From positions 1,792,001 through 1,856,000 of the forward strand of contig OY970178.1 in NCBI GenBank assembly GCA_963707915.1: a stretch of 64,000 nt of DNA, given 5' to 3'. The DNA is from Candidatus Eiseniibacteriota bacterium. GTDB taxonomy: Bacteria > Eisenbacteria > RBG-16-71-46. Each line of letters starts with the position of its first letter. Positions within the stretch are counted from its first letter, which is position 1. The position numbers were made by a program. Positions 38,201 to 44,200 of the stretch are shown here, one piece after another.

Positions 38201-41200
38201 TCGAGCGGAGGTTCGGGGCGGGGGCGCAGGCCCGCGGCTGAGGCGGGCGTCCACCGGGTGACCGTCGACCGCGCCGGCAACGGGTCCGGCGCAGAACGGA
38301 GGCCAGGATGAAGAAGCCGGCGATCGCGCTCCTCCTCGGGGTCGTCTCCTTCCTGCTGATGATGTTCGTCGGCGAAGCGTGGGGGCTCCCCGCGGCGTTC
38401 GCCACGCTGGCGGGCTACTTCTTCGTCTGCCAGCTCCTGCTGTCGCGGGGCAACCGCCACGCGTTGCGCACGGACACGGGCGTCATGCTGGCCCTGGGCG
38501 CCGTTCCGCTCGCGGTCGTCGTCCTGATGGCCTTCGCGGAGCGGCGGGACGTGCTCCTCACCCAGGGCGTCGGAGTCCTGCTCTCCACCGCCGCGGGCAT
38601 CGTCGCGGGAGCGTTCGCGGCATCGCGGACGGCGCGCCGGTAGCCACCCCGCGGCATCCGGTCAGCGCGCCGGCGGCCCGACCCAGAGCAGCCAGCCCAG
38701 GCCGAACGCCAGCGTGGCCAGCGTCAACGGCACGCCGATGCGCGCGTAGGCCCAGAACCCCACCCGGGCGCGGCCCCGGGACTGCTCGACCACGATCAGG
38801 TTCGCGACCGAGCCCACCAGCGTGAGGTTGCCCGCCAGCGTGCTGGCCATCGCGAGCACCAGCCAGGCCCGCTCGGGATCGGCGAACCGGCTCACCCAGC
38901 CGCGCAGCACCAGCACCGCCGGCACGTTGCTCACGACGTTGCTCAGCACGGTGGTCACCCCGGCGAGCGCGAGCTGCGAGTGGTGGGCGGCGGCCGGCAG
39001 GGCCGACAGCCAGCGGGCGGTCAGGCCCGCGCGCTCCACGCCCTCCACCACCACGAACAGCCCGGCGAACATCGTGAGCAGCGACCAGTCCACCTCGGCG
39101 TACACCGTCGCGGGGTCGATCCGGCGCGTGATCAGCAGCGCGGAGGCCGCGAGCAGCGCGGCGAGGCTGGGGGTCACCCCGGCGAGTAGCGCGACCAGGA
39201 GCAGTCCGGTCACGATCAGCGACTTGACGAGCAGGGCGCGGTCCACCGGGGCCGCGGGCGCCGGAGCGTCTTCGAACGCGGGTCCGTCCAGCTCACGGCG
39301 GAACGACCACGCGAGCCAGGCGCTGGCGAGCACCAGCCCCGCCAGGGCCACCGGGACCAGCGCCAGCGAGAAGCGCGCGTAGGAGATCCCCGAGAAGCTC
39401 GCCACCAGCATGTTCTGGGGGTTGCCCACGATCGTGGCGACGCTCCCGACGTTCGAGCCCATCGCCACGGCGAGCAGGAACGGCAGCGGCGGCCGGCGCA
39501 GGGCCGCCGCGGTCTCGAGCGCCAGGGGCGTCAGCAGGATGCAGGCGGTGTCGTTGACGAACAGCGCCGAGATCCCGCCCGCGAGCCAGACCAGCAGCAC
39601 GAGGACGCGCCGCGGCGCGTGGGCCCGGCCCACCGCGCGGGCGTCGAGCCGGGTGAAGAACCCCGCCCGCTTGAGGTGCGCCACCACGATCATCATGCCG
39701 AACAGGAGCGCCAGGGTGTGGAAGTCGATCGCGGCGACCGCCTCGTGCGGGGTGAGCACGCCGAGGCCGATCATCGCGGTGGCCCCGATCAGCGTCGCGC
39801 CGGTGCGGTCGATGCGCAGCGGCGGCAGGGAACCGAACCCGAGGACCGCGTAGGTGAGCGCGAAGACGACCAGCGCCGCGCGGGCGGGGTCGGCCGCGAA
39901 GGGACCCACGCCGTCAGCTCCCCCCGAGCCGCGCCAGCACGGCGCCCGCCAGCTGCGTGAGCGAGGGGTCCCGCGCCCCCATCACCAGCACGAGGTCGCC
40001 CGCCCGCGCCTCCGCGGCGATGCGCCCGACCAGCCACTCGCGCGAGGGCGCGAACTCGGCGGCCGCGCCCCGCGCGGCGATCTCGGCGGCGATCTCGGCG
40101 GCGGAGAAGTCGCGCGTGGCGCTGCCGCCCGCGTAGAACACCTCGAGCATCCAGAACCGGTCGGCGGGACGCAGCACGGAGGCGAAGGTCTCGACGAAGT
40201 CGCCCCGCAGGAACCGCGTCGGGCCGTAGCCGTGCGGCTGGTAGACCGCCAGCACCCGCCCGCCCACGGCGCGCGCCTGCGCCGTGGCCAGGGCCGCCGC
40301 GACCTTGGCCGGGTTGTGGGCGAAGTCGTCCACCACCTCGACTCCGCGCGCCGTGCCCAGCGACTGGAAGCGACGGCCCACCCCCTGGAAGCGCCCCAGC
40401 GGCGCGGCCGTCTCCGCGAGCGGGACCCCGACGGCGCGGCAGGCGGCGATCGCGGCCAGCGCGTTCTCGACGTTGTGGCGCCCGGGCACCGGCAGCGCGA
40501 AGCGCACGCCGTCCACGGTGAAGGCCGCTCCGCCCGGCCCCAGCTCGACGTCGGTGCCGCGCACCGCCGCGCCCGCGCCGAGGCCGAACACGGTCGCGCC
40601 GGCGGCGAGCCCGGCGAGGTTCGCGCCCTCCCCCACGACGAAGGACTCGCGGACGCGCCCGCGAAGCGTGCGGAACATCGCGGCCACCTCGTCCATCTCG
40701 CGGTGATCGCGCTGCAGGTTCAGCACCACGCCCACGGCGGGCTCGTAGCGCACGACCGAGCCGTCGCTCTCGTCGGCCTCGACCACCAGCAGGTCCGAGC
40801 GCCCGGCCCAGGCGTTCCCCCACAGCCCCTGCCGCTGCAGCATCACCAGGTCGCCGCCGGTGATCACCGAGGGATCGCGCCCGGCGCCGCGCAGGATCTC
40901 GAAGATCATCGCCACCACCGTGGACTTGCCGCTGGTGCCGGTGACCGCGATCGTGCGGTGGTCGGTGACGAAGCGCGCGAGCAGCTCCGAGCGGTGCACG
41001 ACGGGCACGCCGAGGCGGCGGGCAGCGGCACAATCCGGCACCTCGCGCTCGACCGCGGTCGACACCACGAGCGCATCCGCGCCCGCGACCCCGCTGCCGT
41101 CCTGGGCCGTCACCTGGATGCCCAGCCGCTCGAGCTGGGCGCGGGCCGGGGCGCGCTCGCCGCGGTCGAAGGCCCGGTCGCTGCCGCTCGCCGCGCCGCC

Positions 41201-44200
41201 GCGCATGACCTGGAACTGCGCCAGCGCGCTCATGCCGCTGCCGCCGAGCCCCGCGTAGTGGAAGCGCCCGCTCCGCCAGTCGGGCGGGGGCACCTCCGCG
41301 AGCACGGCCACCAGGTCGCCCTCGGCCACGCGGTCGAACAGCTCGATCACGGCCGCGTTCGCCATCCGTACGCAGCCGTGCGACGCGGGCTCGCCCAGCG
41401 CGTCCTCGCGGTTGGTGCCGTGCAGGTAGATGGTGCGCTCGAGCGAGTCGCAACCCGGGCCGCGGTTCACGCCGTCCTCGAGGCCCTCGAGCGTGATGAT
41501 GCGCGAGAGGATCAGGTCATCGTCGCGGGTATCGCCCCGCCACACCTCGCCGGTGGGCACGCGGCTCGCGAACACCGCGCCCGCGGGCTCGCCCGCGCCG
41601 ATCCGCGCGCGGACGCGGTGCAGGCCCGGCGGCGTGCGCAACGAGCCCGACTCGCCCCCGATGCCGGCGGCGGCGGTGGAGACCGGGTACTCGGCGAGGC
41701 CCTCGCCCTGCCGGTCGAGCAGCACGAGGCGCTGGCGCGGCACGTCCACCACGAGCAGGCGTCGCCACGGGCCGGGTGGCACGGGGACCCGTGCCAGCGC
41801 CGTGCGGAAGAGGACCCCGGCGCGCCGGGGGTCGGGAATCGGCATGGGGCCACTCTGCCACAACCGACCGGCAAAGCGAACGCGACCATGAGCGGGACCT
41901 GCCGCCGGGTCCGTTCCGAAATGGTTCTCTTCATCGGTACGCCCGAGTGGTAGTGTAACGCTCAGGAGACAGGGATCCGATCGTCGACTCGAGCCACGCG
42001 TTCCCCCGGCACCCTCTCGCCTGGAGCGGTCGACTGCATCGAGCCTCCTGATTCGCGGGTGTCGCGTCGGGAGACACCGGGCCTTCGAGAATCCCGTGAC
42101 GGCCCGCGTTCGATGAACGACATCGCACGAGCCTGGAGGTGCGAATGTCCCCGACGAAACGCCACCGGACCATCCGGACCCAACTCGGCAGGTTGGTCCT
42201 GGTGGTCGCGCTTCCCCTGCTCGGACTCCTGACGCTCGCGATCGTCCTCGCCGCGCAGGAGGCTCGACGCGAGGCGCTGCGGTCGAGCCTGAGACTGGCC
42301 CAACTGGGGGCCGCGCAGGTCCACGGGACGCTGGACGAGGCCTGGGCGCTCCTCGACGAGATCGCGGGGCGGCCACTGGTGCGCGAGGCGCGGCGCGGGC
42401 GCTGCGATCCCGTCTTCGAGGGCCGCACGGCCCTGCCTCGATCGCTCGGCGGCATCCTGCTCGCCGCCCCGGACGGGACCCCGCTGTGCTCGACCACGCC
42501 CACCCAGGAGTCCGACCTCGTGCTCCCCGCCGTGACCGAGTGCCTGGCGCGGGCGCAGCGAAGCGGCCGCCTGGTCATCGGTCCGCCGTTCGTCGCCCGG
42601 GCCACGGGCGCGCGGGTCGTCCTGCTGGCCCGGCCCGTGCGCAACGATGCCGGACGAACCGTGGCGACGCTGGGGATCCTCCTTCGAGTCGATCGCTGGA
42701 CGCCACGCCTGACCGTCGCCGGACTCCCGGAGGGCGGCGCGATCACGGTGCTCGACGGCGAAGGAACGATCATCGCAAGCGTGCCGGATTCCGGGCGATG
42801 GGTGGGATTGGCGACGCGGAGCGCCGAAGTCTCGCGGCTCGCGCTCCGGAGCCGGGAAGGCGTGGGGGAAGTCCGTGGCCTCGATGGCATCGTACGTTTC
42901 TATGGCTACACGACCATCCACGAAGCCGGCTGGAGAGTCGTCGCCGGCGTGCCGCCGTTCTCGGTCCTGGCGCCCTACACCAGCCAGGCGCTCCGATTCG
43001 CGATCGTCTGCCTCGCCATCCTCGTCATCTCCGCCCTGTTCGCGCTCGACATCGGCCGCCGGATCGAGCGCCCGCTCCGCGCCCTGACGGCCACGGCGCG
43101 CGCGGTGGCCGACGGGAAGGCGGAAGCCCGGGCGACCGAGGAAGGCACGGCGGAGACCCGGGAGGTCGCCGCGCAATTCAACCGGATGCTCTCGACGCAG
43201 GAGGAGGCCAGGGTCGCCTTGCGCGCCCAGCTCGCGCTCTCGGAGGAGGCCCGACGCGAGACCAAGGCCATCCACGACCGCCAGACGGTGCTGCTCGAAC
43301 GCGTGACCGACGGCTTCGTGGCCCTGGACCCCGATTGGCGCATCACGTTCGCGAACGAGACGGCCGGGCGGTTGCTGGGCCGCAGCCCCCGCGACCTGGT
43401 CGGCAGGAACATCTGGACCGAGTTCCCCGGCACCGGGGTCCGGGGGGGCTTCCAGGAGGCCTGTCACCGTGCGCTCGAGCAGCAGGTCTCCGTGCGGTTC
43501 GAGGGGGAATACCTGGACTCGGGACGGTGGCTCGAGAACCGGATCTTCCCGTCTCCGGACGGCCTCACGATCTTCTTCGCCGATGTCACCGAGCGGAGGA
43601 GGGCGAACGCGGAACGCCTCGAGGCCGCCTCCCGGCTCCAGCTCGCCGTCCGCGCAGGGAACGTCGGCCTGTGGAGCTGGGACCTGCGCACCGACCACGT
43701 CTGGTACTCCCCGGAGTGGAAGTTACAGCTCGGGTACGGCGTCGACGAGATCACGAGCGAGTTCGGCGAATGGGAGACGCGCGTCCACCCCGACGACCTC
43801 GCCCGGGCCAGGGCCACCGTCGCCGCCTACCTGGCGGCCCCGCATCCGAACTACGAGCTCGAGTGCCGCCTGCGGCACCGCGACGGCACCTATCGCAGGA
43901 TCCTGGCCCGGGCCGAAGTGCTGAAGGACGCCGCGGGCAATCCCACGCACTTGCTCGGGTGCCACAGCGACGTCACCAGGCTCAGACAGGACGAGGAGAC
44001 CCTGCGCCGCGCGAACCGGGCCCTGCGCGTGCTCAACGCCTGCGACCAGGCGGTGGTGCGCGCCAGGACCGAAGCCGAGCTGCTGCCCGAAGTGTGCCGC
44101 ATCGTGCTGACCCTCGGCCGCTACGGGGTCGCGTGGATCTCCTTCGCGGTGCAGGACGAGGCGCGGACCGCGCGCGTCGTCGCCCGGGCCGGCGACCGAC

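Follow-up and report, generated by a model that had tools for sequence, protein, structure and literature searches.

One gene of a Candidatus Eiseniibacteriota bacterium encodes a YkuD domain joined to a complete Mur ligase, and the question raised by this locus is what such a protein does in a genome with neither LdcA nor a canonical Mpl. We analyzed the gene within a window of 64,000 nucleotides (the whole stretch of DNA under study, from contig OY970178.1); the host genome is a single contig of 3.62 Mb with a completeness of 94.8%. The features of the locus are compiled in Table 1. The start codon (ATG at 41845-41843) matched the start of same-genus orthologues in an alignment. A 699-aa open reading frame (ORF) on the opposite strand matched no family and was rejected as a GC artefact. 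Shortly 5′ of the start, a box of the TTGTGGCAGAGTG type was recognized by eye in about 25 of 33 orthologous loci, and the pattern occurred only once in the entire 3.62-Mb genome. In relatives with a split gene, the junction of the two ORFs was located in the linker region between YkuD and the Mur ligase, and the separate YkuD part comprised about 190 to 240 aa. The survey's finding, a 643-aa fusion with YkuD at residues 29 to 181 and Mur_ligase/_M/_C at residues 195 to 625, was recovered with the same Pfam ranges.

Table 1. Features of the fusion gene and its upstream region (positions in the window)
Feature	Positions	Strand	Basis
Whole fusion gene	39914..41845	-	ORF translation of 643 aa plus stop; high-GC3 frame
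Conserved box TTGTGGCAGAGTG	41851..41863	-	Ends 5 nt 5′ of the ATG
YkuD domain of the ElsL kind, cytoplasmic, residues 29-181	41303..41761	-	Pfam PF03734, NF040925, identity, hydropathy
Catalytic Cys158 codon, motif S155-H-G-C158	41372..41374	-	Invariant in 79/79 homologues
Inter-module linker, residues 182-194	41264..41302	-	Gap from Pfam YkuD end (181) to Mur_ligase start (195)
Mur ligase N-terminal (UDP-MurNAc-binding) domain, residues 195-295	40961..41263	-	PF01225, 49.7 bits
Mur ligase middle (ATP-binding) domain, residues 301-469	40439..40945	-	PF08245, 49.8 bits
Mur ligase C-terminal (amino-acid/peptide-binding) domain, residues 491-625	39971..40375	-	PF02875, 70.1 bits
Clade signature 1, DDFAHNP, residues 506-512 (MurC: DDYGHHP)	40310..40330	-	50/50 paralogue rows
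Clade signature 2, QPHGYGPTR, residues 536-544 (MurC: QPHRYSRTR)	40214..40240	-	50/50 paralogue rows

The N-terminal module is a domain of the ElsL kind; its hydropathy and its fusion to an ATP/UDP-MurNAc enzyme place it in the cytoplasm. PF03734 matched the protein with 78.3 bits (cut-off, 23.4 bits; profile positions 2 to 146 of 146). The ElsL model NF040925 was by far the best YkuD-type NCBIfam model (129.7 bits, E value of 8.3e-38, profile positions 9 to 158 of 164, compared to 20 bits for the next model), with a score below its curated cut-off of 270 bits. This cut-off is narrow: among 31 sampled Pseudomonadota genomes, 17 had a stand-alone ElsL-like ORF; these ORFs scored between 119 and 188 bits, a range that includes the fusion protein, and none of the 17 reached 270 bits. 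The window's domain shared 39 to 52% identity with eight stand-alone proteobacterial ElsL-like proteins, and the catalytic residues Cys158 and His142 were invariant in all 79 fused or adjacent homologues; ElsL function requires Cys138, the residue aligned with Cys158 (PMC8649774). A hydropathy check revealed no hydrophobic N-terminal stretch that would represent a signal peptide or transmembrane helix, and the N-terminal hydropathy maximum had a median of 0.92 over the orthologous loci versus 2.93 in the periplasmic YkuD protein of the genome. Both the ElsL assignment with its catalytic SHGC motif and the lack of a signal peptide, as proposed by the survey, were thereby upheld. The domain resembles ElsL of Acinetobacter baumannii (NF040925; PMC8649774) in its YkuD fold, its catalytic cysteine, and the lack of a signal peptide and of a PG-binding domain (Pfam gave no domain beyond YkuD and Mur ligase), but it differs in being fused to a ligase and in its score of less than 270 bits, and its activity is predicted from the sequence. 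The ortholog survey in PMC8649774 covered single-domain proteins of 105 to 200 aa; the 643-aa fusion is missing from it because proteins of more than 200 aa were excluded by design.

The C-terminal module contains three Mur ligase domains that all scored above their Pfam cut-offs, with a P-loop (G303-T-S-G-K-S308) that was invariant in 24 fused proteins and with a MurC-like EADESDGS motif in the middle domain. It reached the cut-off of neither the murC model TIGR01082 (280.5 bits; cut-off, 335.1 bits) nor the mpl model TIGR01081 (129.5 bits; cut-off, 388.7 bits), so that the survey's values for these models and for NF040925 (280 and 130 bits; 8e-38 over profile positions 9 to 158 of 164) were reproduced exactly. 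The best PDB matches were MurC structures (2e-54 for MurC versus 5e-22 for Mpl). In quick tree searches with SH-aLRT as the sole support measure, the window's ligase was excluded from the MurC clade (support, 99; 16 rows, including E. coli MurC and the dcw MurCs) as well as from the Mpl clade (support, 100; 14 rows) and was placed inside a main third clade (support, 97; 37 rows), whose members scored between 250 and 317 bits on the murC model. The motif (S/T)AFFDKRSK, which PMC3060825 gives for Mpl, was detected in 12 of 15 Mpl rows but in none of the 42 paralogue rows. We therefore rejected an assignment as canonical Mpl, given the tree, the mpl score, and the missing motif, and an assignment as true MurC, given the tree, the murC score, and the loss of L-Ala contacts described below. 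The survey's distinction of the paralogue from the MurC of the dcw cluster (528.8 bits on the murC model) was confirmed by their separation in the trees. The ligase is thus not a one-off paralogue but a member of a large unnamed third MurC/Mpl-like clade, of which it carries the diagnostic patterns DD[FY]xHNP and PHG[FY]xP in addition to its position in the tree.

The two clade signatures include changes at residues that bind L-Ala in MurC (numbering of residues 346 to 380 according to H. influenzae MurC). Y346F and H349N were found in 50 of 50 paralogue rows, as were R377G and R380P, while the Tyr and His residues and both Arg residues were retained in all 14 MurC rows. Among the top 150 database representatives, N349 and G377 were each present in 148 and P380 was present in 145. 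R377 and R380 are named as contacts of the L-Ala carboxylate in the Mpl structure paper, and both are also missing from E. coli Mpl, which has S and M instead. Unlike the other L-Ala-binding residues of MurC, H348 and H376 were retained, and a 4-residue insertion relative to MurC follows the signature-2 loop. The ligase therefore shares with MurC (TIGR01082; H. influenzae 1P3D) the top family and structure match by sequence, the domain order, the P-loop, and EADESDGS but differs in the four substitutions, the insertion, and its location outside the MurC clade and the dcw cluster. With Mpl, it has in common the three-domain MurC-like architecture, nonessentiality, pairing with an L,D-carboxypeptidase, the loss of both arginines, and F at position 346; it differs from Mpl in its separate clade, in the Mpl-only (S/T)AFFDKRSK insert, and in the C-terminal loop (EPRSNTMK in Mpl versus QPHGYGPTR).

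The genomic context was then considered. Mur_ligase_M was found at six places of the host genome: four in the dcw cluster (1.208 to 1.216 Mb), which carries its own MurC and from which the fusion gene is separate, one in the fusion gene, and one at 3.273 Mb. No Peptidase_S66 (LdcA) and no AmpD-type amidase (Amidase_2) were detected in this genome, and of 26 genomes that are related or hold the fusion, just 3 had an AmpD-type amidase. The genes that the survey had listed were all found: MurQ scored above its cut-off and the AmpG-like MFS protein below its own (179 versus 350 bits), and AnmK and a NagZ-like gene of the GH3 type were also present. None of 206 genomes of the phylum reached the mpl cut-off; the earlier claim that LdcA and canonical Mpl are missing stood. 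The ligase was held by 141 of the 206 genomes (best E value of ≤1e-80), and 140 of these 141 also had an L,D-carboxypeptidase, either an ElsL-like domain or LdcA, although such counts overstate the signal because related genomes are not independent. In family f1, 78 of 88 genomes had the ElsL-like form and none had LdcA; LdcA was present in 13 of 13 genomes of family f4 (ElsL-like in 2 of 13) and in 39 of 41 genomes of family f18 (ElsL-like in 0 of 41). LdcA, which acts at the same pathway step but has an unrelated serine-peptidase fold, thus takes this place where a family carries the ligase but lacks the YkuD part. The remaining 65 genomes had MurC and no ligase. The distribution of AnmK does not track the ligase (0 of 13 genomes in f4 and 8 of 8 in f13).

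The linkage extends beyond the phylum. All of the 120 best listed database proteins carried the same four Pfam domains, in agreement with the survey. Among the best 80 genome loci, which belong to several phyla, 33 were fused and 11 had a YkuD gene directly upstream; fusion or direct adjacency was seen in Holophagaceae (Geothrix and Holophaga), Nitrospirota, Syntrophaceae, Fibrobacterota, and Krumholzibacteria. Trees of the ligase and of YkuD were congruent, and at three or more places they put adjacent forms beside fused ones. The informative neighbors of the ligase were peptidoglycan genes (NlpC/P60, Amidase_3, murD, and dapB). An analogous pairing was seen in the Pseudomonadota sample (n = 31), in which canonical Mpl was present in 17 of 17 genomes with an ElsL-like gene. 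Exceptions were also observed. Outside the phylum, 18 of 27 holders of the ligase alone had neither LdcA nor an ElsL-like gene, 4 of 20 fused holders had LdcA as well, and one metagenome-assembled genome labeled Gammaproteobacteria contained canonical Mpl (675.8 bits) together with the paralogue. In the small genomes of Elusimicrobiaceae, the third-clade member was the sole MurC-like gene in 7 of 7 genomes, with MurD kept; it often adjoins murD, is located behind asd and dapB, and has an altered signature-2 loop, QPHAF[TA]S. These genomes imply that the scaffold is able to add L-Ala without R377 and R380.

Taken together, we favor, with modest confidence, a coupled trim-and-ligate enzyme for the salvage of murein stem peptides. 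The ElsL-like domain would act as an L,D-carboxypeptidase, and the third-clade ligase would take Mpl's part in this organism; linking both activities may guard against ligation of untrimmed tetrapeptide. Such ligation is the reason why loss of LdcA or ElsL is harmful in E. coli or A. baumannii, and the rationale for coupling draws on the growth defect caused by the elsL ldtAb double deletion, for which 21 of 22 suppressors were located in ampG or mpl (PMC8649774). The analysis establishes the domain architecture, the conservation of the catalytic residues, the cytoplasmic location, the clade to which the ligase belongs, its distribution, and the linkage of the two parts. Both substrates, the reaction order, and the supply route of the free peptide are what we infer, and ligation of tripeptide to UDP-MurNAc is suggested by the co-occurrence, the absence of Mpl, and the gene linkage. 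The role assigned by the survey, trimming of tetrapeptide and religation of tripeptide, was thus partly supported: the co-occurrence with either carboxypeptidase, the repeated fusion or adjacency, and the loss of the L-Ala-clamping arginines argue for it, while Elusimicrobiaceae, the 18 unaccompanied ligases, the fused holders with LdcA, the genome with both Mpl and the paralogue, the missing AmpD, the greater similarity of the ligase to MurC than to Mpl, and the distribution of AnmK argue against it. Precedents for a single polypeptide that unites a Mur ligase with a second enzyme of its pathway are MurC-Ddl (NF011171, of which the window's protein matched only the MurC half) and MurE-MurF (NF008896); these fusions combine biosynthetic steps, whereas the protein in the window combines a hydrolase and a ligase of a salvage route.

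It is rather unlikely that the ligase is instead a MurC-type enzyme that adds L-Ala and is connected to the carboxypeptidase either for regulation or incidentally. The murC model and MurC structures as best matches, the EADESDGS motif, and the placement of the sole MurC-like gene of Elusimicrobiaceae near murD, asd, and dapB are all consistent with this explanation. However, it leaves both the repeated fusion or adjacency and the 140 of 141 phylum holders with an L,D-carboxypeptidase without a reason, the gene is dispensable in that the 65 genomes without it keep MurC, and both L-Ala-clamping arginines are gone. Moreover, Elusimicrobiaceae changed exactly the signature-2 loop, which fits a secondary take-over; complementation of murC(ts) by overexpressed E. 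coli mpl provides a precedent.

An improbable variant keeps the salvage role and reverses the order, such that the tetrapeptide is ligated first and the resulting UDP-MurNAc-tetrapeptide is shortened to its tripeptide form by YkuD. Tetra- and pentapeptides are poor but usable substrates of Mpl (P. arcticus Mpl, published Table 3), the Caulobacter paper credits LdcA with the trimming of both free and sugar-linked tetrapeptides, and ElsL cleaves the sugar-linked tetrapeptide M4 in vitro (PMC8649774); the trimmer-first arrangement of the domains from the N to the C terminus is not decisive for the reaction order. Very improbable is a transpeptidase or exchange enzyme that swaps the fourth residue of cytoplasmic precursors, or a pair that acts on a peptide-nucleotide outside peptidoglycan, since, even though the paper on ElsL ascribes exchange reactions to YkuD-family L,D-transpeptidases, the closest characterized relative, ElsL, is a selective carboxypeptidase (PMC8649774), the ligase retains the MurC/Mpl-type N-terminal domain, and the informative neighbors are peptidoglycan genes. 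Under the trim-and-ligate reading, the pairing, which recurs in several phyla, probably enables the reuse of wall peptides in bacteria without the known recycling enzymes.

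The fusion gene, whose coordinates are listed with those of its adjoining features, has the distribution of GC over codon positions that is typical of real genes in this genome of 72% GC. A long ORF on the opposite strand was rejected as a GC artefact. The encoded protein carries the Pfam domains YkuD (residues 29-181) and Mur_ligase, Mur_ligase_M and Mur_ligase_C (within residues 195-625), all above their cut-offs, and it scored 280.5 bits with the NCBIfam murC model (cut-off 335.1), 129.7 bits with the ElsL model NF040925 (cut-off 270), and 129.5 bits with the mpl model (cut-off 388.7). 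Our rerun returned exactly the domain and NCBIfam values reported in the survey's finding.

Features at the fusion locus (window positions)
Feature	Positions	Strand	Description
Fusion gene	39914-41845	minus	single open frame, 643 codons and stop
CitMHS/ArsB-type transporter gene	38662-39909	minus	start 5 bases past the fusion-gene stop
Conserved box (C/T)TGTGGCA(C/G)N(G/C)TG	41851-41863	minus	few bases 5′ of the fusion-gene start codon

Downstream of the gene lies the CitMHS transporter gene; its other neighbors encode GcpE and a divergently oriented Cache-PAS-GAF histidine kinase. The transporter and the fusion gene may share a transcript. When short flanks were compared, CitMHS was found beside the fusion gene in this genome only and not at the other loci, so the transporter was rejected as a peptide-importing partner; the sole recurrent neighbor in these flanks was GcpE (10 loci). 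The upstream box was seen by eye in about 25 of 33 orthologous loci and is partly palindromic at some of them. Its pattern occurs a single time in the whole 3.62-Mb genome, and it may represent a gene-specific operator or promoter element.

The best NCBIfam match of the YkuD domain is the ElsL model by a wide margin, with the next YkuD-type model at 20 bits. Small stand-alone ElsL-like ORFs, present in 17 of 31 sampled Pseudomonadota genomes, scored 119 to 188 bits, and none of the 17 reached the 270-bit cut-off of NF040925, which is narrow; the 129.7 bits of the fusion domain lie within this range. Comparison with eight stand-alone ElsL-like proteins gave 39 to 52% identity (E values of 1e-33 to 1e-44), whereas the periplasmic YkuD protein of the same genome matched with an E value of only 0.6. 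Cys158, with which the cysteine required in ElsL (PMC8649774) aligns, and His142 were unchanged in 79/79 fused or adjacent homologs. The stretch ahead of the YkuD domain is short and arginine-rich, and the top 12-residue hydropathy had a median of 0.92 over the orthologous loci, compared to 2.93 for the periplasmic YkuD control. Independently of hydropathy, fusion to a ligase dependent on ATP and UDP-MurNAc fixes the domain in the cytoplasm. The fusion constitutes independent evidence that ElsL-type YkuD domains have a peptide ligase as their working partner in the cytoplasm. The ElsL survey left out proteins of more than 200 amino acids (PMC8649774). An atlas search retrieved three clusters that combine YkuD and Mur-ligase domains (57, 115, and 74 members), with few taxon labels.

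The affiliation of the ligase was analyzed with two trees, both of them quick searches supported by SH-aLRT only. In the second tree (74 rows: 42 paralogs, 16 MurC, 14 Mpl, and MurD as the outgroup), MurC (99) and Mpl (100) each formed a single clade, and the fusion ligase was placed in a third (97; 37 rows); this tree resolved neither two small extra paralog groups nor the branching order among the three families. Descent of the ligase from the MurC of its own phylum by a recent duplication was rejected, since E. coli MurC groups with the MurCs of the phylum to the exclusion of the paralog. A divergent Mpl was likewise rejected on the basis of the tree, the score with the mpl model, and a motif: the insert (S/T)AFFDKRSK, which is specific to Mpl (PMC3060825), was found in 0/42 paralog rows versus 12/15 Mpl rows, and the paralogs display a MurC-like EADESDGS instead. 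In H. influenzae MurC, L-Ala is contacted by Y346, H348, H376, R377, and R380 (Mpl structure paper), and this numbering was carried over to our alignment via a PDB alignment.

Residues at the L-Ala-contacting segments (H. influenzae MurC numbering)
Sequences	344-350	374-382
Paralogs, 50 rows (30 fused, 5 split, 15 alone)	DDF[A/G]HNP	QPHG[Y/F]xPxx, mostly GPTR
MurC, 14 rows (13 dcw MurCs of the phylum and E. coli)	Y, H, H kept	H, R377, R380 kept
E. coli Mpl, 1 row	F at 346	S at 377, M at 380

A profile built from 20 paralogs retrieved 8,256 cluster representatives at an E value of ≤1e-30, and the best 150 of these (all at ≥428 bits) carried N349 in 148 cases, G377 in 148, and P380 in 145. Judged by its sequence, the fusion ligase is classified as neither MurC nor Mpl. 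No NCBIfam model naming the third clade was found; its members are labeled "Mur ligase family protein," "L,D-transpeptidase family protein," or MurC in their sources. Full-text literature searches returned no report of the fusion or the clade ("murC2" records from Frankia and Streptococcus were left aside), and nothing relevant was retrieved on Eisenbacteria and peptidoglycan.

The genome, one 3.62-Mb contig rated 94.8% complete, contains no Peptidase_S66 (LdcA) gene, which bears out an earlier claim. Mur_ligase_M was detected at six sites, namely, four in the dcw cluster (1.208 to 1.216 Mb), the fusion gene, and one at 3.273 Mb; the dcw MurC scored 528.8 bits with the murC model. YkuD was detected at only two sites, and the second protein, which is large, is periplasmic, as judged from its strongly hydrophobic N terminus. 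From the recycling set proposed in the survey's finding (AmpG, NagZ-like, AnmK, and MurQ), MurQ was recovered above its model cut-off (341.9 bits), and AnmK and a GH3 NagZ-like gene were present as well; the AmpG-like MFS protein, at 179 bits, stayed below the cut-off of 350. Several Amidase_3 genes were present, and no AmpD-type Amidase_2 was found in this genome. At genome positions 1466000 to 1478000, distant from the fusion gene, murQ, a sugar-type solute-binding protein gene, anmK, and the gene of a SpoIID-domain protein follow each other on one strand, and this group looks like a MurNAc salvage cluster.

The phylum was sampled with 206 species genomes, including the unpublished genome G073; database relatives carry the label Candidatus Eisenbacteria. 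Canonical Mpl was found in 0/206 genomes, the top mpl-model scores (about 200 to 235 bits) belonging to dcw MurCs. The ligase, counted as present at a best E value of ≤1e-80 with the fusion as the query (MurC matches gave 1e-47 to 1e-73), occurred in 141/206 genomes, 140 of which also carried an ElsL-like domain or LdcA, although these genomes are related and the co-occurrences are therefore nonindependent events. The lone holder without either carboxypeptidase, G045, is 70% complete. Among the 65 genomes without the ligase, 17 carried one of the two carboxypeptidases and 48 carried neither. Overall, the YkuD part matched in 92/206 genomes and LdcA was present in 70/206. By family, the ElsL-like domain was detected in 78/88 genomes of f1, 3/3 of f3, and 3/3 of f8, with LdcA in 0/88, 0/3, and 0/3, respectively; the corresponding values were 2/13 and 13/13 for f4 and 0/41 and 39/41 for f18. 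YkuD and ligase share one frame at 30 loci (L009 to L038), and in five genomes (G151, G155, G098, G038, and G039) an ORF of its own, immediately upstream of the ligase gene, encodes the YkuD part. In genus g31 of family f2, the ligase is alone, LdcA is present, and the ligase sequence is nested among fused ones, which suggests that the YkuD part was lost secondarily. AnmK (154/206 genomes) was rejected as supporting marker of a shared recycling module because its distribution does not match that of the ligase.

A pattern scan with one genome per species yielded 594 relatives, and the best 80 loci, which span many phyla, were examined. Thirty-three were fused, 11 had a YkuD gene directly upstream, and 36 were alone. 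Among the fused loci are those of two cultured species, Holophaga foetida DSM 6591 and Geothrix fermentans DSM 14018, and those of nine Nitrospirota-labeled metagenome-assembled genomes (MAGs), Syntrophaceae, Syntrophus, and Syntrophorhabdaceae MAGs, and one Fibrobacteraceae MAG. Adjacent loci were found in Chitinispirillales, Chitinivibrionales, Fibrobacteraceae, Krumholzibacteria, and Eisenbacteria, and lone loci (a few cut by a contig end) were found in Elusimicrobiota, Chitinophagaceae, Planctomycetota, and Armatimonadota. A tree computed for the YkuD domains alone agreed with the ligase tree. Both placed the adjacent Chitinispirillales genes next to the fused Nitrospirota/Syntrophaceae group and the adjacent Fibrobacteraceae and Krumholzibacteria genes next to another fused pair. 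Therefore, the two genes have moved as a module, with two or three fusion events at a minimum. Transfer of the fused gene between phyla is probable as well: the Holophagaceae genes, with 64 to 70% identity to the window protein, are nested within the Eisenbacteria clade in both trees, which suggests such a transfer. Fused genes that share about 70% identity with that of the window were also found at seven loci (L107, L108, L115, L119, L134, L146, and L149) from MAGs labeled Methyloceanibacter, Alphaproteobacteria, or Proteobacteria. These group within the Eisenbacteria cluster and reflect either wrong labels or binning or recent gene transfer. In one Elusimicrobia MAG (L100), a lone ligase gene lies between an NlpC/P60 and C39-like peptidase gene and an Amidase_3 gene, a peptidoglycan-hydrolase neighborhood. 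Canonical Mpl was present in 22 of the 31 sampled Pseudomonadota genomes, among them all 17 holders of an ElsL-like ORF; this is the same pairing, here with the classical ligase.

We regard it as moderately probable that the fusion is a trim-then-ligate enzyme of murein peptide salvage; the reaction order, the substrates, and the peptide supply are what we infer. The YkuD domain would strip D-Ala from the tetrapeptide, the ligase would attach the tripeptide to UDP-MurNAc, and MurF would complete the precursor. In A. baumannii, Mpl attaches the tetrapeptide when the trimmer is lacking, and the resulting precursor is a dead end; of 22 suppressors of the growth defect of an elsL ldtAb double deletion, 21 mapped to ampG or mpl (PMC8649774); the same tetrapeptide toxicity has been described for E. 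coli ldcA mutants (Caulobacter paper, 2026). Such a dead-end product would provide a selective reason for linking trimmer and ligase. Amidase_2 was present in only 3/26 related or fusion-holding genomes (most of them fusion holders) and absent in 23/26 despite AnmK and MurQ; thus, the free peptide would have to arise by another amidase or by periplasmic Amidase_3 followed by import.

That the ligase is of the MurC type, or acts mainly on L-Ala, seems unlikely to us, with evidence on both sides. The murC model was applied to 22 genomes, and seven of these, small Elusimicrobiaceae genomes (1.0 to 1.5 Mb; loci L112, L120, and others among L114 to L148), contained one MurC-like gene, a member of the third clade with 309 to 336 bits. 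As the sole MurC-like gene, it must supply MurC activity there, apparently as a replacement for the canonical MurC. MurD was kept in 7/7, in four of them at a distance of no more than about 1.2 kb from the ligase gene, and the ligase gene follows asd and dapB in both loci scanned. Against a MurC-type role of the clade as a whole stands the loss of R377 and R380, although L-Ala may be a substrate in spite of this loss. In Elusimicrobiaceae, moreover, the signature loop is altered to QPHAF[TA]S[VI][QK], and overexpressed E. coli mpl was reported to complement a murC(ts) mutant (PMC3060825), which together make a secondary takeover plausible. Salvage with the two reactions in reversed order is distinctly improbable, and other chemistries for the fusion are very improbable.

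Several observations speak against the paralog as a simple equivalent of Mpl, among them the Elusimicrobiaceae genes, the scarcity of Amidase_2, and the AnmK distribution described above. A Gammaproteobacteria-labeled MAG (G211; L109/L160) carries canonical Mpl (675.8 bits), MurC, and a stand-alone paralog, which weakens a strict replacement of Mpl. Outside the phylum, LdcA was present in 4/20 fused, 0/8 adjacent, and 8/27 lone holders; only 1/27 lone holders had a gene matching the ElsL model elsewhere in the genome, and 18/27 had neither LdcA nor an ElsL-like gene. What would be new here is a known pathway step taken by a new ligase clade that is fused to a known type of trimmer. Tentatively, and with slightly less than even confidence in the whole, we propose that the clade with the HNP and PHG[FY]xP signatures is a third, unrecognized family of UDP-MurNAc ligases that serves as the murein-peptide ligase in many phyla lacking Mpl (Eisenbacteria, Holophagaceae, Nitrospirota, Fibrobacterota, Krumholzibacteria, and Chitinophagaceae), that it was repeatedly and independently fused to ElsL-type domains to give a true bifunctional trim-and-ligate enzyme, and that it later took over the MurC role in Elusimicrobiaceae.

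Peptide recycling by LdcA or ElsL together with Mpl has been worked out mostly in Gammaproteobacteria, and where LdcA and Mpl are missing, degradation of the peptides to amino acids is presumed; a 2026 Caulobacter study considered tripeptide reuse improbable in species that lack both. If the third-clade reading is true, stem-peptide recycling would be far more common than this view holds. The question is open to a direct test, since the fused gene occurs in cultured species that are not pathogenic (Holophaga foetida DSM 6591 and Geothrix fermentans DSM 14018). If the clade is an analog of Mpl, it would bring the Mur-ligase families acting on UDP-MurNAc to three and would close the recycling gap in several large, poorly studied phyla.
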